Assembly: GCA_964474085.1 (NCBI GenBank)
Contig: CAYYRJ010000003.1
Span: 21,348-85,347 of the forward strand
Source: an uncultured Planctomycetales bacterium
GTDB lineage: Bacteria; Omnitrophota; Gorgyraeia; Zapsychrales; JANLHA01
Length of the DNA stretch: 64,000 nucleotides
Direction: 5' to 3'
In this document: piece by piece, positions 16,998 to 34,480 of the stretch
How positions within the stretch are numbered: the stretch's first letter is position 1
Layout: each line of letters opens with the position of its first letter
Program-made: the position numbers and the translations under genes
The notes under the pieces: model-generated
Told to the model about the DNA's origin: nothing
What the model saw: the letters and a program-made list of their open reading frames with translations, nothing else
Database searches by the model: none

Positions 16998-17209
16998 CCC
17001 GCTGATTATTTACAAATCTCTTTAAATATTTAATTCTAAAATTCAATAAGACGTTTTATGCAACCCACTCATATCTATTAACATACAAAAGTATTTCCAG
17101 GATTCCTGGAATATTTTTGTAAATTATAGCTATGCTTAATTTTGATAAAACGTCTTTTAGCTAAAAGCCCAGAACATAAAATTTTTAAATCATACATCAC
17201 TTAAATCTT

Positions 17210-17633: not shown

Positions 17634-18053
17634 TTACCCTTGTATGCGGGAGATCAAATTATTGACTCGTTGTGCGACTTCTTTGGCTAACTCGTCTTCT
17701 GGACGGACGACAATTTCTCTTTTGGCTCCGGTGATAAGGATTTCGTCAATTTCTAAAATCAATCGGCCAAACGGATTGACTAAATCATAGGCAATTTTGA
17801 AAGCTAACACCATAAAAATAAACAAGGAAATAAAAATAAAACAAACCGTCGCATAAAACCATTGGGCAATGCAAGGGCCAACCAGTAAATAAGATTTGTT
17901 TAAAATCAGAGAACTGACTTGAGTATTCATTAAATAAACAACAATCAGCAGAGCTGCGCTAATCGCAAACAGTGGTGCTGTGATTAAAAAAATGATCTGC
18001 ATTTGGTACTTGTTATTGAGTGCGAAAATATTGCGTTTGATTTGTGAAGTCAT
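17634..18053 (-). CDS. hypothetical membrane protein (2-3 TM helices)
   Basis: IIFLITAPLFAISAALLIVVYL and WFYATVCFIFISLFIFMVLAF hydrophobic segments. Confidence 0.35.
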   Translation of the reverse strand: MTSQIKRNIFALNNKYQMQIIFLITAPLFAISAALLIVVYLMNTQVSSLILNKSYLLVGPCIAQWFYATVCFIFISLFIFMVLAFKIAYDLVNPFGRLILEIDEILITGAKREIVVRPEDELAKEVAQRVNNLISRIQG

Positions 18054-18170
18054 TGACGCTCCTTTGGCAAGATTGAAAATTTTGTAACCTGATTATTGGC
18101 TACTCATAATTTTGAATTATAGTAGCTTTTGAGGTTAAAAGCAACGCCAAGGCTGCGAATTCCAGAAAGT

Positions 18171-19907
18171 TTAATTCTTATTTATGTGCATGTTTTTTAA
18201 TAGCATTTCTAAGGCGGAACGAATCTCTTGAGATTGGGGGTCTAAACGTTGCGCTTCTTTAAGCAGATTGACGGCTTCTTGCAGTCGCCCTGTATTCGCA
18301 AAAGCGATCGCGAGGTTTTTTAAGACAGCAGGTTTTACAAATCCTAATAGGAGGGCTTTTTGGTAACAGTCAATAGCGCGCTGATATTGCCCCATCTGTG
18401 AGTAGACCACGCCCCAATTATGATAACCGACGGCAAATTCCGGAGATAGTTCGACAGCCTTTTGGGCATAAAAAAGCGCGTCATTAAATTTTTTTTGACC
18501 CGCTAAAGCCATGGCGAGATTTGAAGCAACTTCCGCTGAGTTTGGATTTAAAGTCAGCGATTTTAAAAAGCACTCGGCAGCTTCTTTGTCTCTGCCTTTT
18601 GCGAATAAATCACTGCCTAGATCATTCCAAATCCGAACATTGTCAGGCTGTTTTGAAAGGACATCTTTCCAAAGTTTTTCTTCGCTTTGATAAATTTTAT
18701 TTCGCTGATACGTGACCCCGCCGAACATGAGTGCCAAAATCCCTACGAGGATTACAAAGAATACATTGCGACTTTTAGGATTCACATACCGGTTGATCAT
18801 CGCTTTGATTGCGCCGCTAAAAATAATCGTCAGGCATGAAAGCGGGAGATACATCCGGTATTCATAAATCAAGTCTTTAAGCGGAATAAAGCTCGATGTG
18901 GGCGCTAAGATTACAAAAAAACTTAAACCCAAAAAACTTATCGCAGGATAGAGGCGATATAAACAGGCCAAAAGAATAAGCCAAGTGACGATGATAACCC
19001 ACGAGGGGAAAAGAATAGATATTTCTTTAACGACAGGCCAGTGATAATCAAAGATCAGCGGGTTAGGCCAGAGGGCCAATTGTAAATAACGCAAAACGAC
19101 CCGCGGCTGATTGATCAGATATTCCAGCGGGGTTATCCCTTTCATGCCAAACCCGGCGGTCAGCGTTTGCTCCGGTCGGGTCGTCGCGTAGAGAAAAATC
19201 ATGATAGCCCAAGTGAAGCTCAAGCTTAGATACAGCCACCGATGATCTTTAAAAGCTTTGCCAAACGAAGCCGAAATAAAAGTGCGGTCGTAGAGCAAAA
19301 CCACGACAGGCAAAGCCAGCGCAACTTCCTTGGTTAACCCGCAGAACAAAGCGCTAATCCCTGCGCTGACTAACCATCGGATTTTTCGGGTCGTAAAATA
19401 TTGCGTCGAAAAATACAACGTGATTATAAAAAAAAGAGCCATGAGCGATTCGGCCCGCTGAATGATATAGGTTACCGCTTGCGTTTGCAGCGGATGACAG
19501 ACCCAAAGCAAAGAAGTGCCAAAGGCTAAAAGGACTGCATCTCGACGGACACTCTCTCCTATTGATGGCAAACGGCAGGTTTTTACGGTCAAAAGAAACA
19601 AAGACAACGCCGTTAAAATATGGACACAAAGGTTAAAAACATGAAACCCAAACGTATTTAAGCCGCCTTGATGAACGTTAAACGCTAAACTTGCATAGAG
19701 AATAGGCCGGCGATTATTGAACAAAAATTGCCATGGCCAATGCAAGGATTGGATTTTGGGATTCAACACAATTTGTGTCATGTCATCAAATAGAAATGGA
19801 ACGTGAAATGTATCTCGGTAGACGAGCAGTGCGGCCAAACAAACCACAATCACGCCCAAAATCAATGAAATATTTTTTTGCAGGTAAGCTTTAGCCCGGG
19901 GAGTCAT
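18171..19907 (-). CDS. TPR-repeat membrane protein with N-terminal multi-pass GT-C/PMT-like (TMTC-type) domain, paralogue 1
   Basis: About 400 aa polytopic N-terminal domain with acidic loop motif (LFDDMTQ) followed by C-terminal TPR repeats (AMALAGQKKFNDALFYAQKAVELSPE...). Confidence 0.5.
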   Translation of the reverse strand: MTPRAKAYLQKNISLILGVIVVCLAALLVYRDTFHVPFLFDDMTQIVLNPKIQSLHWPWQFLFNNRRPILYASLAFNVHQGGLNTFGFHVFNLCVHILTALSLFLLTVKTCRLPSIGESVRRDAVLLAFGTSLLWVCHPLQTQAVTYIIQRAESLMALFFIITLYFSTQYFTTRKIRWLVSAGISALFCGLTKEVALALPVVVLLYDRTFISASFGKAFKDHRWLYLSLSFTWAIMIFLYATTRPEQTLTAGFGMKGITPLEYLINQPRVVLRYLQLALWPNPLIFDYHWPVVKEISILFPSWVIIVTWLILLACLYRLYPAISFLGLSFFVILAPTSSFIPLKDLIYEYRMYLPLSCLTIIFSGAIKAMINRYVNPKSRNVFFVILVGILALMFGGVTYQRNKIYQSEEKLWKDVLSKQPDNVRIWNDLGSDLFAKGRDKEAAECFLKSLTLNPNSAEVASNLAMALAGQKKFNDALFYAQKAVELSPEFAVGYHNWGVVYSQMGQYQRAIDCYQKALLLGFVKPAVLKNLAIAFANTGRLQEAVNLLKEAQRLDPQSQEIRSALEMLLKNMHINKN

Positions 19908-21888
19908 GTTTTAGCTTTTTGTTTAAGGCCTGCAGATTTTTTTGAGCGCCCTCATGTTGGGGATTGATTGCAAGTGTTTTGCTAAAATCTTTAGCGGCCT
20001 GATCAAAAAGTCCCATCGTCGCATAAACATTCCCTCGGCCGTAATACGCATCGGCGTATTTGGGATTTAATTTGATGGCGGCATTATAATTTTGCAGCGC
20101 TTCTTTAAGCATTTTTTTTTGTTCAAAAACAATTCCTCGATGAGCATAAACCTCGCCGTTTCGCGGATCAATTGACAGCGAGCGATTAAAGTCTGCCAAA
20201 GCCAAATCATATTGTTGCTTTATTCCAAGAATCAAACCCCGCTTATTGTAACCCATCGCCGAATTGGGATTAAGCTTTAAGACTTTTTGAAAATGTTCAA
20301 ACGCTTTGTTAAAGTTGCCTTGTGCATAATAAAAATCACCGAGATTAAAATGTGCTTCAATGTTGGAAGGATCGATATCCACGGCTTTTTGAAAATTTAA
20401 AAGCGCGTTGTTTTTATCCATTTTTATCGCATAAATAATCCCGAGATTATTGTAGGCTTCATCAAAGCGCGGACTAAGTTCTGTAACTTTTAAAAAGTCT
20501 GCCAGGGCAGCGTCGGTTTGTTCGCCGGCTCCGTACATTTGTCCGCGGCTATTGTAACCTTCCGGATAAACCGGATCGACGGCAACAGCCTTATTAAAAT
20601 CGGCAAAAGCCAAAGCATATTTTCCCTCGTCCTTGTAAGCTTCGCCCCGATTAACAAGGGCCATCGAATTATCCGGATAATACTTTAGTTCATGGCTCCA
20701 GAAGGCAATACTTGATTTCCAGACAGATGTTTGGACAAAGGATTTTGCGCTTAAAAGTATCGCGATGAAAACAAGACACGTTGTGGCAAACCACCGAAGG
20801 TTCGGTGTCGGTATTCGTTTGAGAAGTCGATCCACACCATAGCCGATCAAAAAGCAAAACCCAAGGCTTGGCAGATACAAAAAGCGGTTTGAAACCGGTG
20901 GTAGATATTTGATGTCATCAAAACGCAAAAGAAAGAATATCGATAGAAAGTAGAACAGAATTGCAAAAATAAAAAGCCGCTGGCGTCTAAAACGCCATAT
21001 CGCATAAATAAGAAGCCCTAAGCCTAAAAACGATAGGGCAAATTCCGGCGTGCTTAACGAAAATGGCTTGGGAAAACGGTAAAAAAGGACGAGGTCGACA
21101 GGAAAAAGGAATTTGTAAAAATAAAACATCAAGCACCAAACCCACAAAACAATTGCCTCCCCTGCCTGCTGGATCGGATTACGAGCGTTTAAAAGATAGG
21201 TCACAAGCGAAATCGGCACAATATAGAGAAAATGCGGGATTTTATCGAGCAGCATCCATTTGTCAAAACAACGTTTTTTGTACCAATCACAAAGTAAAAA
21301 AATCAACGGCAGGCTTAAGGCCATGGACTTGGCGAGAATACTAAGTATGCCCAAGATGATTGTGGCCACGTAATAGGTAAATTGGCGCTTCTCTAAATAT
21401 TTCCAATAAAAGCACAGAGCCAGCATATAAAAAAATGAATAGAGAACGTCCTTGCGCTCGGTGACCCATGCGACCGACTCGACATGCATCGGGTGTATTC
21501 CAAATAATAGCCCGCCGACAAATGCCGCCAAAAGCGGTAACCCCAACTGCAGGGCAAAATAAAAAACTAAAGCAGTTACGGCAAGGTGCAAAAGTAAATT
21601 ATCAAAATGGTAAATAAACGGCTGGTATTTAAAGAAGTGATACTCAACAGCAAAGGACAATGCCGTCAGCGGGACATAAGTCGGGTTAAAGGGTTTTGTA
21701 AAAATGGATTTGATGTGAGCACGATCGAGCGCCCGGACCGAGGCATTATCGTAAAGATGCAAATTGTCGTCGTTATTGACAAAACCGCTTTTGAGAGTTG
21801 GCAAATAACAGACAAAGGTGACAAGGAGAATGATTCCCAAATAAATCCTCCCTGCTTTTCCAAAAAAACTTTGTGTATTATTCAGCAT
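19891..21888 (-). CDS. TPR-repeat membrane protein with GT-C/PMT-like (TMTC-type) N-terminal domain, paralogue 2
   Basis: DDNLHL loop motif after TM1, multi-TM region, at least 7 TPRs; about 80% identical over long stretches to paralogue 3 (e.g. HFFKYQPFIYHFDNLLLHLAVTALVFYFALQLGLP). Confidence 0.55.
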   Translation of the reverse strand: MLNNTQSFFGKAGRIYLGIILLVTFVCYLPTLKSGFVNNDDNLHLYDNASVRALDRAHIKSIFTKPFNPTYVPLTALSFAVEYHFFKYQPFIYHFDNLLLHLAVTALVFYFALQLGLPLLAAFVGGLLFGIHPMHVESVAWVTERKDVLYSFFYMLALCFYWKYLEKRQFTYYVATIILGILSILAKSMALSLPLIFLLCDWYKKRCFDKWMLLDKIPHFLYIVPISLVTYLLNARNPIQQAGEAIVLWVWCLMFYFYKFLFPVDLVLFYRFPKPFSLSTPEFALSFLGLGLLIYAIWRFRRQRLFIFAILFYFLSIFFLLRFDDIKYLPPVSNRFLYLPSLGFCFLIGYGVDRLLKRIPTPNLRWFATTCLVFIAILLSAKSFVQTSVWKSSIAFWSHELKYYPDNSMALVNRGEAYKDEGKYALAFADFNKAVAVDPVYPEGYNSRGQMYGAGEQTDAALADFLKVTELSPRFDEAYNNLGIIYAIKMDKNNALLNFQKAVDIDPSNIEAHFNLGDFYYAQGNFNKAFEHFQKVLKLNPNSAMGYNKRGLILGIKQQYDLALADFNRSLSIDPRNGEVYAHRGIVFEQKKMLKEALQNYNAAIKLNPKYADAYYGRGNVYATMGLFDQAAKDFSKTLAINPQHEGAQKNLQALNKKLKHDSPG

Positions 21889-23629
21889 TTTGCCCGGCTT
21901 GAAGTTTGTTTAATAGCTGTTGGCTTCGCTCTGCCCCTAAATGGTGGGGATTGATTTTAAGCGCTTTTTCAAAATCTTTTGCCGCTTGATCAAAAATTCC
22001 CATTGTTGCATAAACATTCCCGCGGCCATAATAAGCATCAGCGCTATGGGGATTTAATTGGATGGCTTTATTGTAATTTGCAAGAGCTTGTTTGGGCATT
22101 CTCTTTTGTTCAAAAATAATACCGAGATTATAATGCGCTTGACCATTAGCCGGATCGATTTCAATCGCTTTTTTAAAATAAATAAGCGCTTTTTCATTGT
22201 CTTTTTTCATCGTATAAATAATGCCAATATTATTATACGCTTCGTCAAAATGAGGATTAAGTTCAATAACTTTTAAGAAATCCTCTAAAGCCTCGTCGAT
22301 GTTTCCCCGCATCGCTAATATTTGCCCGCGGCTGTTGTAGCCTTCGGCGTATTTGGGGTCAACGCGGATGGCGTTGTTAAAATCTTCGAGCGCCTTGTCG
22401 TATTGGCCAATATCTTTATAGGCTTCCCCTCGATTGCCATAAGCTGTGGCATTGTCAGGGTAATATTTTAGTTCGTGATTCCAAAACGGAATGCTGTCCT
22501 TCCAAATCTGCGTTTGGGCAAATGTTTTTGCGCCTAAAAGAATCGCTATAGGAATGGCGATCACAAATACAATTTTGCGAAGGTGCTCTTTTTTTAGAAG
22601 TTGATCAAACGAATAACCGATCAAAAAACAAATGCCAAGACACGGCAGGTACATAAACCGGTCGGCAACGATGTTTTTATCAACGGCATTGTCATATCGA
22701 AAAAGGAAAAACATGGAGAAAAAATAATACAGGCCTGCAAAGACAACCCAACGCTGACGCCGGAAAATAAATAATATAGTCGTCAAAATCCCTAGTAATC
22801 CCATGGCGCCTAAATAATGCGGATTGGTCCATGAAATCGGCTGCGGCAGCGCATACATCGGGACCAGAGTTAACGGAAAAAAGAATTTGTGGATGTAAAA
22901 AACGGCCGTCCAAATCCAGATGATAATCCCACTAGAAATATTTTCTCCGGGAATACGTGCATTTAAAGAGTAGGTTATCCACGCTATCGAGACGATATAA
23001 AGAAAATGCGGGACTTTATCGAGAATCATCCATTTGTCAAAAGAGCGTTTTTTAAGCCAATCACAAACAAAAAATATCAACGGCAGGCTTAAGGCCATTG
23101 GTTTGGAGAGAATGCTTAAAATACCAAAAACAATCGTTAGCACATAGGGTTTAATCTCTCGTCGGGAAAGATATTTCCAGTAAAAAAACAACGATAACAT
23201 ATAAAAAAACGCATAGAGCACATCTTTTCTTTCCGTCACCCACGCAACTGATTCAACATGCATCGGGTGAATGCCGAACAATAATCCCGCTGCAAAAGCC
23301 GCTCGAAGCGGCAAGCCAACCTGCAGAGCAAAATAAAACACCAAGGCTGTCACGCCAAGATGCAGGAGTAAATTGTCTAAATGGTAAATAAAAGGATTGT
23401 ATTTAAAGAAATGATATTCAACGGCAAAGGAAAGAAATGTCAGCGGAGCATAGACTTTGTCGACGCTGGTCGTAAATATTTGCCGGATGTGGTCTGCATC
23501 CAAGGCCCGGATAGACGAATTTTCTAAAAGATGCGTGTCATCGTCTAAGTAGACAAAATGATTTCCAAGGGTTGGCGCGTAAGATACTACGGCAGCCAAA
23601 AGAACAATAAACAGAGCTCTTTTAATCAT
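21878..23629 (-). CDS. TPR-repeat membrane protein with GT-C/PMT-like (TMTC-type) N-terminal domain, paralogue 3
   Basis: YLDDDTHLL loop motif, multi-TM, C-terminal TPRs; tandem duplicate of paralogue 2. Confidence 0.55.
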   Translation of the reverse strand: MIKRALFIVLLAAVVSYAPTLGNHFVYLDDDTHLLENSSIRALDADHIRQIFTTSVDKVYAPLTFLSFAVEYHFFKYNPFIYHLDNLLLHLGVTALVFYFALQVGLPLRAAFAAGLLFGIHPMHVESVAWVTERKDVLYAFFYMLSLFFYWKYLSRREIKPYVLTIVFGILSILSKPMALSLPLIFFVCDWLKKRSFDKWMILDKVPHFLYIVSIAWITYSLNARIPGENISSGIIIWIWTAVFYIHKFFFPLTLVPMYALPQPISWTNPHYLGAMGLLGILTTILFIFRRQRWVVFAGLYYFFSMFFLFRYDNAVDKNIVADRFMYLPCLGICFLIGYSFDQLLKKEHLRKIVFVIAIPIAILLGAKTFAQTQIWKDSIPFWNHELKYYPDNATAYGNRGEAYKDIGQYDKALEDFNNAIRVDPKYAEGYNSRGQILAMRGNIDEALEDFLKVIELNPHFDEAYNNIGIIYTMKKDNEKALIYFKKAIEIDPANGQAHYNLGIIFEQKRMPKQALANYNKAIQLNPHSADAYYGRGNVYATMGIFDQAAKDFEKALKINPHHLGAERSQQLLNKLQAGQNAE

Positions 23630-23664
23630 TAATTTTTATTTGCTTGTTGCCACGCCTTTTTCTG

Positions 23665-26600
23665 TTAAAAAACTTCCTTTTCTTGGTTAACATGCCACGT
23701 TGAAGAATTGGTCGTAATTTTCCAATAGGGACGATATGGCGTTAAGCTATAGGGATTATGCGGTTCCCAAATTAAAGTTGCTTTTGGATTCTTTAAATCA
23801 TTCATTATCTGTGTGTACTCTCGCAAAAGATTGAGCCGTTTTTCGTTGTCGCTTTGCTTTAATGTGCGCATAAGTGTTGATAAATTCTTTAACATGTTCT
23901 TAATGACCTGAGTTTTGACTAATTCGACAGCTGTTGTTTTATTGACATCAAAGAAACGTTCAGGCGTTTTTGTCCAGCTAACTTCTTTAAATGATCCATC
24001 TAAGGCGCTAATGATAATTACCGCGCTGGTAAGATTGTTTTTGTTGTTTGTTATTTTTTTATACGAAACCAGATAATAGTCGCCTTTTTCGATATCTGGA
24101 CGGGTGACACGGATGACTTGGCCCATTTCACAATTTTCAAAGGCCGAAATAGCTTGCGTGTCGGTTAAAAAATTTTTGTCCACGAGATCTTGCCAAGCCC
24201 GTTTTTTAATTTTTTTGGCTTTCAATTTTGCTGTTGTTGTAGTGTTTAGCAAAGGATTGTTTGCGTTAATAAAATCAAGATTTTCGTTATTTGTCAGGGG
24301 TTTCATTACTTTGATTGTCGCTGTGCTTATTTTATTCGGAGGTTCTGCGACTTGAACATATCGCCCATTATAGGCATCCCCGGGGGCGTCCAACGGCAAA
24401 AAATAAGTTGAACGACATTCTGCAGCTGTTTTATAAGTATCCTGCCCAATTCCTGTAATGAGTGGGTCGCTCATCCAAAAACCAAACAAAGCAAAATCCG
24501 GTGTATAAAACGGATTTGTTGTCGGTAGTGGACAGGGATTATTGCTGGCTGCAAAACCTTTGATTGCGACCCAATGCGAGTAATTACCATATAATGGTAC
24601 GGCCGCCGGCGTATTAGGACGTGCTACGAAGGGACCATCTTTCCACCACTGCTCTTGCTTAACGGTAAACGCTATCCAATGGCTTATATTGCGCATATAG
24701 GCATTGATCGCATCCGGGGAAGCAACATGGCTGTCAACGCTGAAATTGTAACCTTGGTATGGATTGCCATTGGGACGTGCATCATAGACGTCATAGCTAT
24801 TGCTAACTAATGTGTCGTAAGGGTCAAAATGTCCCAGCGCTTTTGCGATTTGATCGGCGTTTAATTCACCGCTTAGTGTTGCTGGGGACTTGGCGTATTC
24901 ATAAATTTCATTTTGTGTCTTAGTCGGTAGGCCGGCTCCTTCACGCATATAATCTATGATCATTTGACTGGTTGCTGCACCTGTTGAGGAATAAGGCGCA
25001 ATATTTTGTCGCCAAGGCATTTGACTTAAGTTTAAAATATAGTCGTGAATATCTCCCAGAGGACCACCATGAATGCCCATATCATTGCGTGTGGCATTTA
25101 AGTCATTAAACCGGCTGTCTGGGTCGCCTCCATTGACAGCGGGTGAAGAAAGATTTAATTGAAAATCCCTTGTATCAATAAACCTTGGATCTGTGTAAAT
25201 GTTATTTGTCGCTAAACTGATGCCGGTTGCTAGTTGGCCGGTTGTGTTATTCCAAAAATCGTTATAGGAGTACTCTTGTATCCCGCTGCCCGCAGCGTAA
25301 ATCGTTTGAGCGCCAAGTGTGTTTTGCATGAAAATATTATTTTTTGCTGTAATATTCGAATTGATCGCGTAGGTTACAACCCCCTGTGTTGTTGCGCCGG
25401 CGTTCCCGCGGGTATTATAAAAAACATTATTATAAAGGCTTACGGTACTGTTGTTCGCATTAAGAGCACCGCCCTTGCCCAAATTTGAAATTCTTCCGCT
25501 TATAAAAACATTATTTTGCAGTGTTGCTGTTGAGTTTGTGATTGTAACGCCAGCTCCCTGATCCCAAGAACCACAAGAGGAAAATCGGTTTCGGATGATT
25601 TCCAGATTTGAGCCGTCGCTGATTTTAAGGGCCCCTTCCCAGCGTTCCTTAAAAAGATTGTCTTGAATTAATCCTGTCGATGAAGTCAACGAGATACCCG
25701 GCGGAAGCGGCCCTAAAGTATTGCCAAAAGTATTTCCGATGATTTGAATGCTGTTGTGACCAAGTCCGCGGATTGGTTCAGAGTCGTTGATGGTGTTATT
25801 TCTTATAATCGCTGCGGCGTTATCGTCAAGAGATATTCCTTTTCGCGATAAAATGTTATTGTCAATTTGCAACGAACTGACCGTCGGTAAACATCGGATG
25901 GCTACCGAGCCGCCGGTTATTGTAAAACCGGTAATCCGTGCTTTGATATCGCCAAAAAGATTTGAGGCAGTAATGTTTGCTGTTGTTGTTAAGCCGTTTA
26001 GTATTGATTTTTGATTTTCACCCGTTAGCGTTACCCCGCTTTTATTAAAATTTAAATTTTCGGTATATGTCCCGGGAGCGACTAAGACTGTGTCGCCGCT
26101 TGTCGAAGCATCAATCGCTGCTTGGATCGTTGGATAATCTGCAGGTACACGGCGGATTTGGCCTGTCGACGAGTAAAGGTAACTTAAGGCATTTTGAACT
26201 TTTGTGAAATAACCGGTATTTTTAGCGGCATAGTGTAGAAATGTGGGTTTGCCGTCATGAATGTTAAGTCCCTGATCGATGGATAACACAGTATAGGCGG
26301 CACTTAAAGTTTCAAAAATAAAACGGGCGACAGGTGGTGTATAGGCGGCATTATTTTTAATGATGCTCGTGGTCACTTCAAAACCAAAAGGTTTATGTCC
26401 GTCGCTGCCATTGTGATAATAATGGGCCGTGTCATTTTTTAAGTCCCCGATTTTTGTGATCAACGTATTGATATCTAAAGGGTCTAAGTCCGGCCCAATA
26501 TTAAAAGGAATAAAAAAAGCATGGGGCGTTGCGTTCGCTGAAACACTTGCCGGCACTTCATTGGGAAGATTAGGCGGGGTATAAAATCCGACTCCGCTTG

Positions 26601-27627
26601 GCTGGGTCATTGCATCTGAAAACGCTGGATAATCAACCCCGCGCAGGTTACCAAAAGCCAAATGGGCTTTGACGGCATTAGCAAAAGATGAGTTACTGTA
26701 TTGATTTTCGATTCCTGTTTCCCATTTTGCGACGGGAAATCCGGATAATGAGCGCACTCCCCAAGTGAACATCGCATTAAACCATGCCGCTTCTTTAACA
26801 ATAATGTTATTCCACTGGCGAGGTGATTTTTTCATGACATCGACGATATTTTTATATTCATCGAAGGTAATCGAGTCTGACGCATAAGCGATCCACGCCA
26901 TCATGCCGCCTTCATCAGCGTAGACATCCCATTGGCTGCTTCCCTGCTTTCCATTAGACGCATCGACAACATGTTTTAAATATTCTTTATGTGCATCAAG
27001 AAAAATTCTGAAATTCATTTTTTTGCTAATCGATAAAGCTTTGGTTTCAATTGTGCCAAGGCCATTAACATTCGCCCAGCCTTGCGCGATTAAAAGCGAT
27101 GTGTATAAAAAACCATTGTCAACCGAGGGAATAAAAACATTGGCATCATGATACGGTGTTGTTAGGTCAACCCCAGAAGGGGTCGTTACATAATAATAAG
27201 GGTAAAACAAAGAACGATAACTTTGCGAAGGGTCATTTTGGAGGCGGATCATTGTATCAAGAGATTTTTCAATTCGACTTGAAGCATTTGATACGGTGAT
27301 GATTCCTCGGTCTGCGGCGACGATCCATGCGAGTATGGCATAACCCCATTCGGTTGGATTTGAATAATTGTATTGACCGCGATTGCCTTCCCGATAAGCG
27401 CCCAACGGAAATCCGGATGATGTAATAGCGTCGGATGACAAAAAATAATTGAGGTGTGTTTTTAACATTTCATCGAGCAGAGCATACTGCGTGCTCGTTA
27501 AAAATGGGCGTGGACTGGCCGCAGGAAGTTCATCTAAAGCGTAAGATTTCTGGGAATCAAAGGGTAGACTTAAGAGCAGGCATAAAAAAAATACAACAGT
27601 CACTCTTGTCTTGAAAAAAAAATTCAT
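23665..27627 (-). CDS. large secreted multidomain protein (1320 aa) with central right-handed parallel beta-helix (PbH1) repeats
   Basis: Signal peptide MNFFFKTRVTVVFFLCLLLSLPF; beta-helix repeats NNILSRKGISL...RNNTINDSEPIRG...IGNTFGNT, NNVFISG...NNSTVSLYNNVFYNT...AKNNIFMQN; N- and C-terminal domains unassigned. Confidence 0.55.
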   Translation of the reverse strand: MNFFFKTRVTVVFFLCLLLSLPFDSQKSYALDELPAASPRPFLTSTQYALLDEMLKTHLNYFLSSDAITSSGFPLGAYREGNRGQYNYSNPTEWGYAILAWIVAADRGIITVSNASSRIEKSLDTMIRLQNDPSQSYRSLFYPYYYVTTPSGVDLTTPYHDANVFIPSVDNGFLYTSLLIAQGWANVNGLGTIETKALSISKKMNFRIFLDAHKEYLKHVVDASNGKQGSSQWDVYADEGGMMAWIAYASDSITFDEYKNIVDVMKKSPRQWNNIIVKEAAWFNAMFTWGVRSLSGFPVAKWETGIENQYSNSSFANAVKAHLAFGNLRGVDYPAFSDAMTQPSGVGFYTPPNLPNEVPASVSANATPHAFFIPFNIGPDLDPLDINTLITKIGDLKNDTAHYYHNGSDGHKPFGFEVTTSIIKNNAAYTPPVARFIFETLSAAYTVLSIDQGLNIHDGKPTFLHYAAKNTGYFTKVQNALSYLYSSTGQIRRVPADYPTIQAAIDASTSGDTVLVAPGTYTENLNFNKSGVTLTGENQKSILNGLTTTANITASNLFGDIKARITGFTITGGSVAIRCLPTVSSLQIDNNILSRKGISLDDNAAAIIRNNTINDSEPIRGLGHNSIQIIGNTFGNTLGPLPPGISLTSSTGLIQDNLFKERWEGALKISDGSNLEIIRNRFSSCGSWDQGAGVTITNSTATLQNNVFISGRISNLGKGGALNANNSTVSLYNNVFYNTRGNAGATTQGVVTYAINSNITAKNNIFMQNTLGAQTIYAAGSGIQEYSYNDFWNNTTGQLATGISLATNNIYTDPRFIDTRDFQLNLSSPAVNGGDPDSRFNDLNATRNDMGIHGGPLGDIHDYILNLSQMPWRQNIAPYSSTGAATSQMIIDYMREGAGLPTKTQNEIYEYAKSPATLSGELNADQIAKALGHFDPYDTLVSNSYDVYDARPNGNPYQGYNFSVDSHVASPDAINAYMRNISHWIAFTVKQEQWWKDGPFVARPNTPAAVPLYGNYSHWVAIKGFAASNNPCPLPTTNPFYTPDFALFGFWMSDPLITGIGQDTYKTAAECRSTYFLPLDAPGDAYNGRYVQVAEPPNKISTATIKVMKPLTNNENLDFINANNPLLNTTTTAKLKAKKIKKRAWQDLVDKNFLTDTQAISAFENCEMGQVIRVTRPDIEKGDYYLVSYKKITNNKNNLTSAVIIISALDGSFKEVSWTKTPERFFDVNKTTAVELVKTQVIKNMLKNLSTLMRTLKQSDNEKRLNLLREYTQIMNDLKNPKATLIWEPHNPYSLTPYRPYWKITTNSSTWHVNQEKEVF

Positions 27628-27817
27628 AATTCTCCCCTTTCGATAATGCAGTTAATCAGAAAATTTAGTCTAGAGCGATTTGTTTAACTAAAAGAGCAGC
27701 AGGTCTGATGCAAATTTCGGGTTAAAAATGAGGCCACATATTTTAAAACAAAACAGCAAACTAATTTTAGTTTTAACAAGTTGGATTATAACATCAACTT
27801 AAATAGAGTTTTGAATT

Positions 27818-29263
27818 TTATTTTATTTCAAATGTGTTGCCGAATTTCTCGGCGCTGGCTAATTGTTTTAAGAATAATTCGGGAACAGCATAACCTAAAT
27901 TTTGCGCTTTTTGGGAGTATTCCTTGGCTTTTGCAAAATTTTGTTTATTAAAATAGGCGACGGCAAGGTTATAGTGGCTGTCAGCATCCTGAGGATTAAG
28001 TTCAACCGCTTTTGTATACGATATGATTGCTTGTGCAAGGTTTCCTGTTTGTCCATACGCAAACCCCAGGTCGCGATAAATTTCTGGTGTTTGTACGGCC
28101 AAATCAACAGCTTTTTGTAAATGCGATATCGCTTCGTTGAGTGAATTGCGATCAAGATAAATTTTTCCTAAGTAAGTTAACGCAGAAATATTAGACGGTT
28201 CGCGTTTTAAAACGTCCTGCCAGGCGCTTAAAGCTTCGGTATTCATGCGCATTGCACTGTAGGATTTTGCGATACCGACGAGAGCTTTTAAATAATTCTG
28301 GTCAAGGGCTAGCGCTTCTTTAAAATTTTTGAGGGCTTCACCGTATTTTCCCTCGAGCAATAGTCCTTCTGCGTGATAAGTCAATGCATTCGCTGGGCTG
28401 ATTTGACGATTAAAATCAGCAACCGTTAGCGGTTGATTATAAGTGAAGTATTTTTTGGCTGCATTAACCGGTATGCCAAAATTATGTCCGCTTTGAGGAC
28501 TGAAAGCTTTTGAGATTCCGACGAGATTGCCTTGGGCGTCTAAAATCGGTCCTCCGCTGTTTCCGTGCCCGGTGACTATTTTAGACTGTAAATTTTCATG
28601 TTCGTCGATGACAGTTTTGCTGACAAACGGCCCGCTGGAAGTTTGATAGAACGATCCTTCTCGATGACCGATTGTAAAAAGAATGTCTCCGGGGTTTAAT
28701 TGATCCGAGTCGCCTAAGGGCAGCAGCGGCGCATTGGCGGTGTTGATTTTTAATAAACAAATATCAAGGTCATCATTATAATTTGCGATAAATTCAACCG
28801 GAAAAGTTTCTCCTGTTTTTGTGCGAACACTGATCGATGCGGCGTTAAAAACAACATGAAGATTTGTTGCAATAAGACCATCTGCCGAAACAAAAAATCC
28901 AGTTCCGTTGATGGTGCTGGTCGCCTTTTTTGCCTCGATGACCAACACAGACCGTGAAACACTGTCGATGAGATTGCTGATTTTTTCTGACGGGGATTGC
29001 TCTTGTGCCGGTTTAGGTTCGACAGATTCTAAGGAGTCGGCAGTTATGCTTTCGATTTCATTTCGATAGTAGGTGACCGTAACGCCGGATAAATCAACCT
29101 TAATATAATCCTTATCAGAGGCGATGATTCGCGCAGTCACCGTCGAACCGGATTTGAGTTTAATTTCTTCTGCCCGGGCAAAGCAACAGAAACTCGCGCT
29201 GAAGATAAAAACCAAAAGCAAAAAACGCTGCTGGTTTGTGTTTAGAATTTTCGATCTTTGCAT
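27818..29263 (-). CDS. secreted trypsin-like (S1) serine protease fused to TPR repeats
   Basis: Signal peptide; His block GFFVSADGLIATNLHVV; Ser block GHGNSGGPILD; C-terminal TPRs (YLGKIYLDRNSLNEAISHLQKAVDL...). Confidence 0.7.
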   Translation of the reverse strand: MQRSKILNTNQQRFLLLVFIFSASFCCFARAEEIKLKSGSTVTARIIASDKDYIKVDLSGVTVTYYRNEIESITADSLESVEPKPAQEQSPSEKISNLIDSVSRSVLVIEAKKATSTINGTGFFVSADGLIATNLHVVFNAASISVRTKTGETFPVEFIANYNDDLDICLLKINTANAPLLPLGDSDQLNPGDILFTIGHREGSFYQTSSGPFVSKTVIDEHENLQSKIVTGHGNSGGPILDAQGNLVGISKAFSPQSGHNFGIPVNAAKKYFTYNQPLTVADFNRQISPANALTYHAEGLLLEGKYGEALKNFKEALALDQNYLKALVGIAKSYSAMRMNTEALSAWQDVLKREPSNISALTYLGKIYLDRNSLNEAISHLQKAVDLAVQTPEIYRDLGFAYGQTGNLAQAIISYTKAVELNPQDADSHYNLAVAYFNKQNFAKAKEYSQKAQNLGYAVPELFLKQLASAEKFGNTFEIK

Positions 29264-31086
29264 TCGCTAATATTTAAATAATGGGCATCGGCCAATCGTT
29301 TTTTAGCCTGATAGAGTTCTTTGACTTGCCTTCTCCACTGATGAAGATCTGCACATGTGACACAGCCGTCTTTGTTGAGATCGAACGATAAAATTAAAAT
29401 ATTCTGTCGATCTGTTGTCAGACAGCGGTTGATTAAGGGTTTGAATTGTTCGATGTTTTCCTTGTCACAAAGATACTGCTCATTTCTTGGCGCTGGCGGT
29501 TCGATCCAAGTGCCAAAACCTTTGGTACAACCGCGAAATGATGTCGGTTCAGATTCAGACACGGTATTTTCAACGTAAGTTTTTTTTGATTTTAGGCGTG
29601 ATTCTTTAGCCTTCATGATTTTATCAGCTTTTTCTTTCTCTTGGGCTTCTCGTTTTTCTTTAGCTGCTTGAAGTTTGGCTGCCTTATCGTTTCTAATTTT
29701 AACTGCTTTTGCGTCTCTTTCTTCTTTTGCTTTTTGAATTTTGCCAGTTTTCGTTTTTGCTTTCGCTTCGTTTTCTTCTTTAATCTTTTGAAGTCTTGCA
29801 GATTGTTCTTGGGCTTTTGCTGCTTTTTCTTTTCTTATTTTTTCAGCTTTTTCGTCGGCCTTTGAAGTCTTTGTATTTTTAACTGCAGGAATATCAGCAA
29901 TTTCGGTAGGTGCAGGAGGTACTGCACTTTCAACAATTTCTAAAGGGACTTGTGAATACGTTTGAGCTGGGCTCATTGTCTGGGGATATTGATTATCATC
30001 ATTTTCAAGCAAAGCATTTTTAATATCCGCAGGCTGTTCAACAAATTCAGCGTCTTGTGCCACCTTACGTTCAGCTTTTTCGCGAATTTTAGCGGCTTTG
30101 TCGTCGCGAGCTTGTTGAAGTTTAGCTTCTCTTTGTTCTTTAGCTTCTTGGAGCTTGGCCTGTTTAGCTTCGAGTTGGGCGGCTTTGTCGTCGCGGGATT
30201 GTTGAAACTTGGCTGCTTTTTGTTCTTTGGCTTCTTGGACCTTGGCCCGTTTAGCTTCGAGCTGGGCGGCTTTGTCGTCGCGGGCTTGTTGAAACTTGGC
30301 TTCTTTTTGTTCTTTAGCTTCTTGAAGCTTGGCCCGTTTAGCTTCGAGTTGGGCGGCTTTGTCGTCGCGAGCTTGTTGAAGTTTAGCTTCTTTTTGTTCT
30401 TTATCAGCTTGGAGTTTAGCTGCCTTTTCTTTGGCTTTAGCTTCTTTGTCTTGAATTAATTTTTTATGTTTTTCTTTTTTGATGCTCGATTTACTATTTT
30501 TCAGTTCTTCTATTTGCGCGATGGCAAATTGTTTGCAGAGTTTGAAATCTAAAAGATTTTGAGGTTGTTCGCATCCTGCGACTGTTGACTTCGCATTTAA
30601 CCCGACAAGGCAGGATGTTTTAGCCGCGCTGGTATCAATTAACTCGCAAATGGTTTTGTCATTGAGCTGTTTTGCGCGAAATTCTAAACAAATGGAAAGA
30701 TCCTTTGCATTTGAGGAGCAGCTGTAACATTCTTTTTTTATATCTAGGTCGGAAATCATTTTGCAAAAGGAAAGATCTCCTGTTGTTTGCTTAAGTTGGG
30801 AGAGACAAGCGTTGATATCTTTTGGGTTTTGATTAAGCTGACAATCAGCTAAGCTTTGGGGTGGATGAGAAACGAAACACATCGCCCGACGTTCTTTGTT
30901 GGTGATTTTTAAGCACAGGGAATAATTTTGTGCTGTGAGTCCAAGAGTTTCAAAACAATCGTCGCGCCATTCCGGATAACCAATCCTTTCACAGCTGAGG
31001 ATCTGTTGTTGCAACAATGATTCTTTTGCATGAAGCATTGGCGTCCATGCTAGTAAAAGTCCCAGAAATAAAAGTAGTTTTTTCAT
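29242..31086 (-). CDS. secreted Cys-rich protein with central 29-aa (87 bp) tandem E/A/K-rich repeats and C-terminal EF-hand-like loop
   Basis: Signal peptide MKKLLLFLGLLLAWTPMLHA; >=4.5 repeats of AKLQEAKEQKEAKFQQARDDKAAQLEAKR (87 bp period in DNA at about 30060-30460); C-terminal DLNKDGCVTCAD fits the EF-hand loop pattern. Confidence 0.55.
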   Translation of the reverse strand: MKKLLLFLGLLLAWTPMLHAKESLLQQQILSCERIGYPEWRDDCFETLGLTAQNYSLCLKITNKERRAMCFVSHPPQSLADCQLNQNPKDINACLSQLKQTTGDLSFCKMISDLDIKKECYSCSSNAKDLSICLEFRAKQLNDKTICELIDTSAAKTSCLVGLNAKSTVAGCEQPQNLLDFKLCKQFAIAQIEELKNSKSSIKKEKHKKLIQDKEAKAKEKAAKLQADKEQKEAKLQQARDDKAAQLEAKRAKLQEAKEQKEAKFQQARDDKAAQLEAKRAKVQEAKEQKAAKFQQSRDDKAAQLEAKQAKLQEAKEQREAKLQQARDDKAAKIREKAERKVAQDAEFVEQPADIKNALLENDDNQYPQTMSPAQTYSQVPLEIVESAVPPAPTEIADIPAVKNTKTSKADEKAEKIRKEKAAKAQEQSARLQKIKEENEAKAKTKTGKIQKAKEERDAKAVKIRNDKAAKLQAAKEKREAQEKEKADKIMKAKESRLKSKKTYVENTVSESEPTSFRGCTKGFGTWIEPPAPRNEQYLCDKENIEQFKPLINRCLTTDRQNILILSFDLNKDGCVTCADLHQWRRQVKELYQAKKRLADAHYLNISECKDRKF

Positions 31087-32024
31087 AAAGATCCCTTTGT
31101 TGGAAGGTTAATTGTTTGTGCCAATTCTACCGAGACATTTCCTAGTGGGGTTTTGAGAATTGCATGCAGAGGTCTTTTGGAGCCTGATGCTGAGAAAAAA
31201 ACCTCTGCGGAGACTTTCTTCAGTTGTTTGCCGTTGCTAAAAACATAGGGTTTAAGAAGATAAGATTCATGAACTGTATTATCCGCAAGAATAATTTGTT
31301 TGCTGGCTGAAAGCAAACCGATAAAGTTATAAATGGTATCGTCCGCGTAGAGATCAAATTCAGAAGTATCGCCCAAACTCCAAGGCATCATTCGCAAATA
31401 AAAACCGCCGCTTAACACATCGAGCAAGCGTTTTGGGATCGCAAGCTCTTTGACTTGTCCATTGAGATGATTTTTATAATGGGCTTTGCAGTTTGCATAG
31501 TCGAAATCAACGGTTGACTCAAGAATCACGCCCCCTTTAACGTACTCTTCATGGCGCAGGACAACAAATTTTTTGGCGTCCATATAGGAAACATAGCGGT
31601 CCTTGGCGCCAAAAAGCGCTGTAAAAAACGGCATCGTTTTTGAAATCATTTCAAAGCAATAGACATCTTGTCCGTTGAGAATGGTTTTCCCATTATTGAT
31701 CGTAATAAACTCGCCGATCGTCAGGCCCAAATATTTGGCTTTAAAAATAAGTTTTTCTTGTTCTGGCATCTTTTCTGCAGCCAAAGCCAATGCCGATGAT
31801 TCAATTGATGCGGCAGGCGGCTCTAATAACGCGGTAGCGTTGTGTTCGACTACAGGAATTTGCGGTTCTTGCTTGGGTAAGGTGGCTTTGATTTTTTGGG
31901 CTTCCAAGAGGATGTCCTCTTTTTTCAAAACAGACGCACATCCTATTATCAAAAGAAAAGACAAGAATCCGATCAAAAACTTTAATTTAGGCATGATCGT
32001 TTTTAGAAAGAAATGATTAAGCAA
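31083..32024 (-). CDS. lipoprotein of unknown function
   Basis: Lipobox LSFLLIIGC-A after positively charged N-terminus; 313 aa. Confidence 0.4.
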   Translation of the reverse strand: MLNHFFLKTIMPKLKFLIGFLSFLLIIGCASVLKKEDILLEAQKIKATLPKQEPQIPVVEHNATALLEPPAASIESSALALAAEKMPEQEKLIFKAKYLGLTIGEFITINNGKTILNGQDVYCFEMISKTMPFFTALFGAKDRYVSYMDAKKFVVLRHEEYVKGGVILESTVDFDYANCKAHYKNHLNGQVKELAIPKRLLDVLSGGFYLRMMPWSLGDTSEFDLYADDTIYNFIGLLSASKQIILADNTVHESYLLKPYVFSNGKQLKKVSAEVFFSASGSKRPLHAILKTPLGNVSVELAQTINLPTKGSL

Positions 32025-32550
32025 CTTTATTGTCTTGTTTTAATTTTGGCCAATGTTCCTCGGCTAAAATATAGCCAACGCAACGGCTGGCGCGGCAATA
32101 GCAACGGTGTTCATCATACCCGTCATACCCGTAGCTGTAATTGTAGGTAATCTCTTCTCCCTTTTTGATGTCGCGCAGCGCAATCGTCCAAATTTTCCCG
32201 CGGATGATTTCTGTTTCGGCATTCGGGTCGCAGGAGTGATTGACATGTCGCGCTGTATTATAGGGAACATTGCCATCGATATCATAGCGTTTGTTAAGGT
32301 CAAAAAGATATACTGCCCCGAGAGTTTGATCTTCTTTATGGCGATGCAATGGAATAAGGGCCCGTTTTTCAGCTTCTGCTTTTGTGATTTTTTCGCCGAC
32401 GTATTCAATGATCCGTGTTCCTTCAGGGATATCTTTTTTTGCGAAAACCCCGCGGCCGTGGATCGCTGAATTTCGGACCGTAATAAAAGGACTGGTTGTT
32501 TTTTGTGGTTTCATATTGGGTAGAATAGCACGCTCGTCAGAGAAATTCAT
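32017..32550 (-). CDS. SET-domain protein (putative protein-lysine N-methyltransferase)
   Basis: HGRGVFA (GxG block), NHSCDPN (SET motif III), ITYNY, and post-SET Cys cluster CYCRASRC; 177 aa. Confidence 0.7.
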   Translation of the reverse strand: MNFSDERAILPNMKPQKTTSPFITVRNSAIHGRGVFAKKDIPEGTRIIEYVGEKITKAEAEKRALIPLHRHKEDQTLGAVYLFDLNKRYDIDGNVPYNTARHVNHSCDPNAETEIIRGKIWTIALRDIKKGEEITYNYSYGYDGYDEHRCYCRASRCVGYILAEEHWPKLKQDNKVA

Positions 32551-32572
32551 TATTTACCTGGAATTTTTAACA

Positions 32573-33580
32573 TCACTTTGCGGATCTATAAGTTTTTTTC
32601 CAATACGCCTCCAAAAAACGACGTTTCTTGACGAGCCACGCCTGATGATCATGGTACCAACGGATAGTTTCGTCAAGGCCTCTTTTAAATTCGACCTTCG
32701 GCGTCCACCCGAGTTTTTCAAGTTTGCTGCAGTCAACGCTATAGCGAAAATCATGGCCAAGCCGATCCTGGACAAATTCAATCAGCGAATGGGGTTTACC
32801 TAAATGATCCAAAATCATTTTGACGGTATTAATATTCTGTTGTTCAAAATAACTTCCGATATTATAAACTTCACCGATTTTTCCCTTGCGCAAGATCGTA
32901 TCGATACCGTTGGCACAGTCACTGACGTGCAGCCATTCGCGGATTTGTGCGCCTTTCCCATAAACGGGGACTTTTGTATTATTCAAAGCTTTCAAAATAA
33001 TGACCGGAATTAACTTTTCCGGATATTGCCAGGGCCCGTAATTATTGGCCGGCCGGACAATGATCGCTGGAAATTTATAAGTATGCAAGGCCGCCTGGAC
33101 TAAAAGTTCTCCAGCAGCTTTTGTTGACGAATAAGGATTTTTGGCTTTGAGCGGATCGGTTTCTTTGAAATAACCGTTTTTGCTCTCGCCATAAATTTCG
33201 TCGGTTGAAATATGGATAAATTTTTTTATTTTAAATTCACGCGAAAGATCAATAAGATTTTGCGTCCCCTGCACATTGGTCTTAATAAATGCTGATGCAT
33301 TTTGTATGCTGCGGTCGACGTGGGTTTCGGCGGCAAAATGAATGACGATTTGCGGCGCTTCTTTTTTAAAAATTGCGTGGAGTTTTTTGTGGTCGCAGAT
33401 ATCAACTTTATAAAACTTGATTTCTTTGCCGACATCTTTAAGCCGCTCTAAATCTCCGGCATATGTCAATTTGTCGACGCCTACCAGAGAATAATTCTTT
33501 TTAACGGACTGACGGACAAACTGGCTGCCGATAAAACCTGCAGCGCCTGTGACTAATATTTTATCGATGGATTTTTGCAT
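32573..33580 (-). CDS. rmlB: dTDP-glucose 4,6-dehydratase
   Basis: ILVTGAAGFIGS Rossmann motif, YSSTKAAGE catalytic YxxxK, 335 aa; adjacent to rmlA. Confidence 0.85.
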   Translation of the reverse strand: MQKSIDKILVTGAAGFIGSQFVRQSVKKNYSLVGVDKLTYAGDLERLKDVGKEIKFYKVDICDHKKLHAIFKKEAPQIVIHFAAETHVDRSIQNASAFIKTNVQGTQNLIDLSREFKIKKFIHISTDEIYGESKNGYFKETDPLKAKNPYSSTKAAGELLVQAALHTYKFPAIIVRPANNYGPWQYPEKLIPVIILKALNNTKVPVYGKGAQIREWLHVSDCANGIDTILRKGKIGEVYNIGSYFEQQNINTVKMILDHLGKPHSLIEFVQDRLGHDFRYSVDCSKLEKLGWTPKVEFKRGLDETIRWYHDHQAWLVKKRRFLEAYWKKTYRSAK

Positions 33581-33598
33581 TATTGAAATGTCCTTTTT

Positions 33599-34465: not shown

Positions 34466-34480
34466 AAGGAGTAAACCTTT

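Follow-up and report, generated by a model that had tools for sequence, protein, structure and literature searches.

A tandem array of putative TMTC/TfpW-type GT-C/TPR glycosyltransferases in an Omnitrophota locus with a variable set of secreted neighbors

The fusion of an N-terminal polytopic GT-C domain with C-terminal tetratricopeptide repeats (TPRs) is characteristic of the eukaryotic protein O-mannosyltransferases TMTC1-4 (CAZy family GT105), which reside in the endoplasmic reticulum (ER). TMTC enzymes mannosylate cadherins in animals. Among bacterial proteins, a similar architecture has been described for TfpW of Pseudomonas aeruginosa, a pilin O-arabinosyltransferase of the GT-C type whose TPR domain is periplasmic; it modifies Ser/Thr residues of a secreted protein, and its single-copy gene immediately follows that of the substrate, pilA. 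The existence of TMTC homologs in prokaryotes is mentioned in one paper; besides TfpW, bacterial or Omnitrophota GT-C/TPR proteins of the TMTC-like kind are the subject of no paper in the literature that we searched. Here we analyze three such proteins (A, B, and C) encoded in a 64-kb stretch of DNA (hereafter, the window; positions 21,348 to 85,347 of contig CAYYRJ010000003.1, assembly GCA_964474085.1) that comes from a metagenome-assembled genome (MAG) of Candidatus Omnitrophota, has an identical stretch on the ENA contig ERZ4216102 NODE_5179, and encodes proteins whose best homologs are from Omnitrophota MAGs. To our knowledge, this phylum is known only from metagenomes, and its members are regarded as ultrasmall bacteria with a host-dependent or predatory lifestyle. 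The reading that we favor, with fair but far from complete confidence, is that A, B, and C are inner-membrane GT-C_A glycosyltransferases with periplasmic TPRs, and that the adjacent genes for secreted proteins (D, E, and F, described below) do not encode an obligatory partner set. The three open reading frames (ORFs), with lengths in amino acids (aa), are:

23629..21878, minus strand, C, 583 aa ORF
21888..19891, minus strand, B, 665 aa ORF
19907..18171, minus strand, A, 578 aa ORF

The original prediction for this stretch described the three proteins as paralogs that join a polytopic N-terminal domain carrying a DD loop to C-terminal TPRs, and this description holds. Each protein consists of a polytopic hydrophobic N-terminal domain followed by TPRs that match the Pfam models TPR_1/TPR_2 with E = 1e-28 to 1e-54, and the paralogy is far beyond chance (E = 0 for C vs B and E = 7e-35 for C vs A). 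In C, the N-terminal domain (aa 1 to ~378) is followed by about 5 TPRs; B, which belongs to the same B/C subtype, has two extra TPR units compared to C (about 7 TPRs), seen as a 68–71 aa TPR insertion in the BLASTP alignment. The third paralog, A, is divergent (~23% identity to either B or C), contains 4–5 TPRs and a KE motif, and represents a PMT_2-like subtype that is found across the Planctomycetota-Verrucomicrobiota-Chlamydiota (PVC) bacteria. Two of the paralogs had been thought to be ~80% identical and recently duplicated; we find that B and C share 60% identity in the N-terminal domain and 64% in the TPR part, and that orthologs of B in other genomes (95%, 92%, 77%, and 69% identical to B) are nearer to B than C is, which indicates that the split between B and C is old and not recent.

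The full-length AlphaFold2 model of C (pLDDT 93.6, with 56 homologs) displays the TPR superhelix, and a Foldseek search with this model retrieved TPR proteins only. Because the search was swamped by these proteins, the membrane domain of C was modeled alone (pLDDT 88.9, pTM 0.90). The top 27 matches of the resulting model in the PDB are all GT-C enzymes or their relatives, with a Foldseek probability of 0.97–1.0, and include the human and yeast oligosaccharyltransferase (OST) subunit STT3, AglB, PglB, Pmt4, Pmt1/Pmt2, ArnT (5f15), DPY19, EmbC, and a GPI-transamidase subunit. The best E-value is 4.5e-5 (STT3, 8b6l_I) and the highest TMq is 0.58 (Pmt4, 9i5k_A); non-GT-C matches begin only at E ~0.1, with a probability below 0.25. 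The GT-C fold, the feature on which the original prediction was staked, is thus recovered in the model of the N-terminal domain.

The same conclusion is suggested by the conserved residues, which we compared with motifs M1–M7 as defined for TMTC by Eisenhaber et al. (PMC7801869, Table 4); the metal ligands proposed for TMTC come from a modeling study and not from experiment. The comparison gives the following picture, in which four to five of the seven motifs are seen in A, B, and C:

M1 (DD): present in A, B, and C
M2: partial, K-x-Y-x-P-L (Y60-x-P62-L)
M3 (RxD): present, R134-x-D136
M4: the Lys (K176) is invariant; the following Glu is kept in A only (TKEVA), with K-S or K-P in B and C
M5 (Asp-Trp, located in the DUF1736 loop): no equivalent detected
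M7 ((D/E)RxxY): present, D323-R324-x-x-Y327

The DD motif lies just after helix 1, in loop 1 (YLDDD in C, NNDDN in B, LFDDM in A). D29 is invariant in both alignments, those of 24 N-terminal domains and of 56 full-length homologs, and D30 is invariant in the former and present in at least 90% of the latter. The other positions that are invariant or nearly so in 24–56 homologs are Y60/P62, H83/N86/H90, H121-P122, R134/D136, K176, D190, R324, and Y327. Given that these homologs are diverse, the invariance of the putative active-site residues points to purifying selection on that site. Furthermore, the segment LLFGIHPMHVE resembles the segment LLFAVHPIHT of TMTC3; the spacing between M4 and M7 is 148 residues vs 188 in TMTC3.

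The membrane topology was read from the helices of the model, from the loop charges, with SRREIK, KKRSFDK, RRQR, and KKEHLRK all falling on one side, and from a beta-bridge between residues 259-260 and 319-321 in the model of C. The topology predicted in this way, with 11 membrane helices, an N-terminus on the cytoplasmic side, and TPRs in the periplasm, is that of TMTC and TfpW. The DD motif would then be located in periplasmic loop 1, whereas K176 in loop 3 and the D/E-R-x-x-Y motif in loop 5 would form the lipid-phosphate site; K176 and R324 are conserved basic residues at the expected phosphate-binding positions. Loop 4 is predicted to be shorter than the DUF1736 loop of TMTC and to hold a hydrophobic helix that does not span the membrane.

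Taken together, the modeled fold, the motifs, and the architecture support the placement of A, B, and C in the GT-C_A clan, with a TMTC/TfpW-type organization. With TMTC1-4, they share the N-terminal polytopic GT-C domain joined to C-terminal TPRs, the DD in loop 1, Y-x-P-L after a basic loop-1 residue, R-x-D, the loop-3 Lys, (D/E)-R-x-x-Y, LLFxxHPxH and, given the predicted topology with 11 transmembrane (TM) helices, the non-cytoplasmic location of the TPRs. The differences are that A, B, and C lack DUF1736, that no Asp-Trp of M5 was found, that B and C lack the Glu of M4, that the N-terminal domain is about 385 aa long vs about 450–470 aa and is combined with 5–7 TPRs, and that these proteins would function in the bacterial periplasm rather than in the ER. 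Hence the TMTC architecture claimed in the original prediction stands for the GT-C/TPR combination, for M1, M3, and M7, and for parts of M2 and M4, and does not extend to DUF1736 or M5. The similarity to TfpW, compared by description, is one of architecture (11-TM GT-C domain, DDx in loop 1, periplasmic TPRs); unlike the single-copy tfpW, there are three paralogs here, and the only pilin-like gene is some distance away:

37917-38306, minus strand, type IV pilin-like gene with an N_methyl motif, ComP_DUS-like, ~14 kb upstream of the GT-C genes

With PMT (GT39), ArnT (GT83), and STT3/PglB/AglB (GT66), the shared features are the membrane-domain fold (Foldseek probability 1.0) and the acidic motif in loop 1. 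A, B, and C differ from PMT in that no MIR domain was matched in any of the three in the Pfam search and in that the PMT_2 score is below the gathering score in A, with no such match in B and C; compared to STT3/PglB/AglB, the soluble C-terminal OST domain is replaced by TPRs.

The hidden Markov model (HMM) check suggested in the original prediction gave no above-threshold match to DUF1736 or PMT_2 in A, B, or C. DUF1736 (PF08409) is matched by none of A, B, and C up to E = 10 and by none of 24 N-terminal domains of the family up to E = 1, and precomputed PF08409 annotation is found in none of 240 listed homologs; human TMTCs, by comparison, all match DUF1736, with E < 1e-30 except for the canonical entry of TMTC1 (Q8IUR5, 3e-19). 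A match to PMT_2 exists in A only and is sub-threshold (18.8 bits vs a cut-off of 26.1, E = 0.002), and one of 24 relatives matches PMT at 9e-5. Because DUF1736 is missing, the PMT score stays under threshold, and MIR is lacking, we do not file A, B, and C as either TMTC or PMT proteins.

By analogy with TMTC and TfpW, we propose that A, B, and C would, at the periplasmic side of the membrane, accept a monosaccharide from a polyprenyl-phosphate-sugar and pass it to acceptor proteins recruited by the TPR domain of each enzyme, and that paralogs with ~5 (C), 7 (B), and 4–5 (A) TPRs might have different acceptor ranges. In this periplasmic setting, the donor would be an undecaprenyl- or other polyprenyl-phosphate sugar and not dolichyl-phosphate-mannose (Dol-P-Man).

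Several observations weigh against these assignments. No curated glycosyltransferase model in Pfam scores above threshold on the N-terminal ~385–420 residues of A, B, and C. When the N-terminal domain of C was compared with PDB sequences, a single-sequence search returned chance matches only and a profile search none, so that the fold assignment rests on the predicted structure together with the motifs; the TM-scores of the Foldseek matches, obtained with that predicted structure, are moderate (TMq 0.5–0.58), and the topology derives from secondary structure and charge distribution. In the 64-kb window, no gene for a polyprenyl-phosphate sugar synthase (GT2) was found. Finally, because B and C have no Glu in M4 and no counterpart of the Asp in M5 was found, their metal binding or chemistry may differ from that of TMTC.

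This last point can be taken further, to the view that catalysis is altered or lost in B and C, which would act as scaffolds or chaperone-like TPR membrane proteins, and that only A, which keeps the K-E pair, retains transferase activity. The lack of any match of B and C to a glycosyltransferase HMM, even at E = 10, would fit this scenario. We consider it very improbable, given that DD, R-x-D, K176, D190, and D-R-x-x-Y show little or no variation in 24–56 diverse homologs, as expected under purifying selection, and that the metal ligands by whose absence B and C would be judged were proposed for TMTC from modeling.

The family to which A, B, and C belong is very large and is expanded in Omnitrophota and other PVC bacteria, and the three proteins are unexceptional within it. 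A word-indexed search yielded >4,250 relatives of the N-terminal domain of C, nearly all of those with a named organism coming from Omnitrophota, and >3,001 relatives of the N-terminal domain of A, from Planctomycetota, Verrucomicrobiota, and Omnitrophota, many with precomputed PF13231 (PMT_2) annotation; a few relatives of C and likewise some of A are named “protein O-mannosyl-transferase” by JGI. Among GTDB species genomes, two peptide patterns detected 470 relatives, the best 80 of which are spread over ~50 MAGs, a single MAG containing as many as four separate loci. Within ±10 kb, two copies are present in 11 and three copies in 7 of the 75 loci with a detected GT-C gene; tandem GT-C/TPR arrays in 18 of 75 loci are thus a regular feature of Omnitrophota. 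Within the window itself, a tblastn search with A–H (the letters D–H denote neighboring genes, listed below) revealed no further GT-C copies; a 147-aa TPR ORF (11206-11649), considered as an additional copy, was rejected because it shows a weak TPR match only. One relative, a GT-C/TPR gene 47% identical to C, lies on a 2.6-kb contig binned as Candidatus Micrarchaeota (L074, JAHFEC010000141.1), which is probably mis-binned Omnitrophota DNA.

Considering that prokaryotic TMTC homologs are mentioned in the literature and that databases hold thousands of such proteins, proteins of this kind are already known as such; the B/C subtype with a short loop 4 and its expansion in Omnitrophota are not described in the literature searched. 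The main gain is that proteins to which databases give only the label “tetratricopeptide repeat protein” now have an annotation based on structure, with a GT-C fold, TMTC-like motifs, and no DUF1736. If they are active protein O-glycosyltransferases, A, B, and C would be bacterial counterparts of animal TMTC, and the expansion in Omnitrophota would imply extensive, paralog-specific glycosylation of surface proteins.

The genes for A, B, and C belong to a string of neighbors encoded on the same strand, which includes:

32017..37659, minus strand, co-directional genes upstream of H, by Pfam annotation
31083..32024, minus strand, H, DUF3108 protein (PF11306, E = 3.6e-16), directly upstream of F
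31086..29242, minus strand, F, 614 aa ORF
29263..27818, minus strand, E, 481 aa ORF
27627..23665, minus strand, D, 1320 aa ORF
18053..17634, minus strand, G, 139 aa ORF

The co-directional cluster that the original prediction placed at 17634-31086 is indeed a tight string: seven long ORFs share the minus strand and are transcribed in the order F-E-D-C-B-A-G. Adjacent ORFs overlap by 4 nucleotides (nt) between H and F, 22 nt between F and E, 11 nt between C and B, and 17 nt between B and A, and the only sizeable gaps precede D (190 base pairs, bp) and G (117 bp). Given this strand, the genes for D, E, and F lie upstream (5') of the transferase genes and not downstream, as had been stated. The genes further upstream encode a SET-domain protein, an RmlB-like dehydratase, an RmlA-like nucleotidyltransferase, a GT1 protein (EryCIII/UDPGT-like), and a ThiF-nitroreductase fusion, and have the same order, from SET to ThiF-nitroreductase, in the related locus L002 (numbers with L denote loci). 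A promoter scan of the window found 44 sites vs 43.8 in shuffled sequence, i.e., no excess, and operon boundaries could therefore not be set.

The protein encoded by E was originally taken for a fusion of an S1 protease with TPRs, and this is borne out: E matches Trypsin_2 (E = 2e-26) and TPR families (about 5 TPRs), starts with a signal-peptide-like sequence, and contains the triad motifs TNLH (133), DLDIC (165), and GNSGGP (234). It thus shares with HtrA/DegP the Trypsin_2 domain, the His/Asp/Ser motifs, and the signal peptide, but differs in that the Pfam search found no PDZ domain and in that the NCBIfam HtrA equivalog models score 72–92 bits vs cut-offs of 416–470. Judging from its sequence, E is a secreted HtrA-like S1 serine protease with TPRs in place of PDZ. 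Orthologs are encoded directly upstream of C in L009 and L010 and there is none in L002+L008; E is dispensable in the closest relative. A search of metagenomes with E returned two weak TPR matches only.

F has a signal-peptide-like start, a conserved Cys-rich N-terminal domain, a middle part rich in K/E/A/Q that consists of 29-aa tandem repeats, and a conserved C-terminal domain. At the DNA level, the repeat unit is 87 bp long (3.7 copies with 89% matches, at 30092-30414), and the repeat number varies among orthologs (614, 646, and 589 aa). The earlier description of F as a tandem-repeat EF-hand protein is therefore accurate with respect to the repeats; as for the EF-hand, there is a single EF-hand-like loop, DLNKDGCVTCAD (D-x-N-K-D-G-C-V-T-C-A-D), which is conserved in 4 orthologs and, as read from the sequence, fits the canonical positions 1, 3, 5, 6, 8, and 12, and F matches no Pfam family up to E = 10, including any EF-hand HMM. 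Orthologs of F are located upstream of the array in L002, L009, and L010; in L010, an assembly gap, visible as Xs in the translated protein, interrupts the copy, which is hence called as two genes. The small protein G has two hydrophobic helices, a weak HAMP-like tail, and a weak NCBIfam match to a methyl-accepting chemotaxis protein (MCP) region. Orthologs of G follow the C-B-A array in L008, L010, and L013, and orthologs of H are present in L002 and L009.

The tight packing with overlapping stops and starts, the signal-peptide-like N-termini of D, E, and F, and the precedent of tfpW, which directly follows the gene of its substrate, could be taken to mean that A, B, and C glycosylate the adjacent D, E, and F, i.e., that the locus encodes a dedicated O-glycosylation and processing system for a cell-surface structure, as originally proposed. 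Adjacency of the genes at this locus is in itself no evidence of a functional system, and no Ser/Thr/Pro-rich (mucin-like acceptor) tracts were found in D, E, and F. The question is mainly one of conservation of the neighborhood, for which the following gene orders are informative:

Window and L001: H-F-E-D-C-B-A-G
GCA_964635405.1 (L002+L008): SET-H-F-D-C-B-A-G, E missing
JAYRHV010000333 (L009): SET-H-F-E-C, D missing
GCA_964574575.1 (L005 = L010): F-E-C-B-A-x-x-G, D missing
L013: C-B-A-G, upstream part lost at contig end
L006/L011 (67–69% identity): B-like, third type, and C-like GT-C genes, with unrelated flanks on both sides

The two contigs of GCA_964635405.1 were joined on the basis of an overlap within the start of the C ortholog. 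In the four close relatives, the order F…C-B-A…G is constant, and the synteny, as F-E-C-B-A-G or F-D-C-B-A-G in four related genomes, speaks for a dedicated system; D and E, however, are each missing from their slot in at least one of these relatives, and the B and C orthologs of L006 have unrelated flanks. Outside the close relatives the association disappears. An HMM of the N-terminal domain of D detected no D-like gene in any of 78 further GT-C loci, and an E-like TPR-fused protease occurs in none of them beyond the close relatives L009 and L010; the only protease encoded beside a GT-C gene there, a distant one in L024, was examined as a counterpart of E and rejected, being an ordinary HtrA-PDZ protein without TPR fusion. 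Homologs of D with 76% and 41% identity are found in unrelated contexts (L003 and L004). In a Pfam survey of the immediate co-directional neighbors of GT-C genes, from which close relatives were excluded, 23 of 51 upstream neighbors are phosphoribosyltransferases (Apt-like), a single one contains Trypsin_2, and the rest are heterogeneous, as are the 31 downstream neighbors scanned; neighbors of family members are mostly housekeeping genes. Co-conservation of the transferases with the secreted proteins thus largely fails, with D and E variably missing and F linked within a narrow clade, and the neighbors do not form a conserved partner set. A dedicated glycosylation and processing system is accordingly not supported, and we regard it as quite unlikely.

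The Apt-like neighbor deserves a separate mention. In 23 of 51 loci (L014–L085), and thus in many Omnitrophota genomes, a gene for a ~178-aa adenine-phosphoribosyltransferase-like protein lies directly upstream of one GT-C/TPR paralog, whose synteny with this housekeeping gene is conserved. The idea that this recurring neighbor is a SET protein was rejected after it was identified as the adenine-phosphoribosyltransferase-like gene.

F and G alone keep their linkage to C-B-A, and they do so within one narrow clade only. Given this linkage, F alone is plausible as a local substrate for the three transferases, a role that is speculative. A more far-reaching scenario, built by analogy with pilA-tfpW, is that Omnitrophota have expanded the TMTC-like GT-C/TPR proteins with a short loop 4 into a multi-paralog system of periplasmic or surface protein O-glycosylation, with F-(E/D)-C-B-A-G in this clade as a substrate-plus-enzyme module. 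Each TPR domain would then pick its own acceptors, F would be a glycosylated surface protein, and the slot between F and C would accept D or E. We hold this scenario to be rather unlikely.

With regard to the slot between F and C, the ~95 bp directly upstream of D (27628-27722 in the window and ~7625-7718 in L002) are conserved and include a ribosome-binding-like site, GAAAGGGGAG. Given that this leader is conserved even though the preceding gene differs (E in one case and F in the other), D behaves as a separate cassette in a variable F-C slot. This pattern suggests that D and its own leader form a cassette that is either mobile or retained as a unit, and D appears to have been gained in this lineage.

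D itself has a signal-peptide-like N-terminus, 40 homologs in a word search, and three parts:

26143..27540, minus strand, D N-terminal domain (aa 30-495), putative divergent member of the clan of beta-1,2-glucan enzymes with an (alpha/alpha)6 barrel (PF10091/GH144, DUF3131, Cgs-like)
25078..26130, minus strand, D middle part (~aa 500-850), right-handed parallel beta-helix
23668..25020, minus strand, D C-terminal domain (~aa 870-1320), no family match

The beta-helix is identified by PF13229 (E = 2.7e-17, 63.3 bits vs a cut-off of 25.9), NosD (E = 3.2e-8), and the NosD-family model TIGR04247 (E = 2e-10). The N-terminal domain has no direct match in Pfam, and its direct profile matches to the PDB reach E = 0.18–0.5 only. 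The domain family is rare, with 132 cluster representatives among 1.84 billion; among its distant members, 19 of 46 carry PF10091 (“Glycoamylase”) and 3 carry DUF3131. A profile of these distant members matches PDB entries 8wy1 (8e-68), 8rf9/8rf0, a cyclic glucan synthase (2e-58), 8xuj, 8xul, and 5gzh, a GH144 endo-beta-1,2-glucanase (3e-10), and hhalign connects the family of D to this set with a probability of 100% (E = 2e-58). The motifs NPxE(I/W)G, PSxDN, and (Y/F)GF occur in the same order in the N-terminal domain of D and in beta-1,2-glucan enzymes. The relationship to GH144 (5gzh), the cyclization domain of Cgs (8rf9, 8wy1), and XCC2207 (8xul) is one of profile-level homology; compared with these enzymes, D is very divergent and is fused to the beta-helix and a C-terminal domain of ~450 residues. 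The latter has no Pfam match and no PDB sequence match, is common to the closest D orthologs only, and is a separate ORF in L003. Altogether, the most likely role of D is that of a secreted enzyme acting on glycans, and not that of an adhesin. Of the earlier view of D as a beta-helix adhesin or lyase-like protein, secretion and the beta-helix (PF13229) remain; the helix covers only ~aa 500–850, and an adhesin is less likely than a glycan-active enzyme.

In other proteins, the N-terminal domain of D is fused to beta-helix, carbohydrate-binding (CBM), Ig-like, dockerin, or peptidase modules, and its sources with a named organism include Aenigmatarchaeota, Woesearchaeota, Nanoarchaeota, Elusimicrobiota, and Verrucomicrobiota. 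The presence of such a rare domain also in DPANN-type archaeal phyla, by source annotation, may bear on small cells attacking host envelopes. Directly upstream of the D homologue in L004, a Logan contig, a 3309-aa fusion protein is encoded (55-9984) that contains PIG-L, glucosamine isomerase, ribulose-phosphate epimerase, transketolase, and PfkB modules; giant proteins of this multi-enzyme kind have been reported for Omnitrophota.

The presence of the glycan-active D and of the RmlA, RmlB, and GT1 genes among the neighbors raises the question whether the acceptors of A, B, and C are not proteins but, for example, lipid A or lipopolysaccharide core, peptidoglycan, or a periplasmic or surface glycan, as with ArnT or the Emb/Aft arabinosyltransferases, the TPRs serving as a scaffold for envelope machinery and not to select protein substrates. 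ArnT, EmbC, and AftD are among the structural matches, and bacterial TPRs often scaffold polysaccharide export, although the NCBIfam TPR matches of the three proteins (PgaA/BcsC/PilW) are generic. In contrast, the enzymes found in this analysis to combine a GT-C domain with C-terminal TPRs and to have a proposed or demonstrated acceptor, namely TMTC and TfpW, act on proteins; the motif set of A, B, and C is nearer to that of TMTC than to that of ArnT; and the extreme multiplicity of paralogs would fit many protein acceptors better than one lipid. We therefore see non-protein acceptors as an unlikely alternative to the glycosylation of TPR-selected proteins.

The remaining features of the window concern the surroundings of the locus. 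Rfam and tRNA scans of the window gave zero matches. Terminator-like sites, identified by consensus match only, are somewhat enriched in the window; a single one of them is intergenic and is located between the convergent genes for G and a DUF4434 protein:

17095..17111, both strands, palindromic terminator-like hairpin

ThiF and nitroreductase-like modules occur twice in the window, first as the 655-aa fusion (35692-37659, minus strand) at the head of the co-directional cluster, and again as separate genes of 295 and 355 aa beside an O-methyltransferase gene (49110-52137, minus strand). These modules may represent chemistry of the sulfur-carrier type or of the type found with ribosomally synthesized and post-translationally modified peptides (RiPPs). 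Finally, the region 8548-14634 has a lower GC content (0.38–0.40) and few ORFs apart from a Zeta-toxin-like gene, a RhuM/Fic protein, an NTP_transf_5 nucleotidyltransferase, and the 147-aa TPR ORF mentioned above, and may be a toxin or defense islet.

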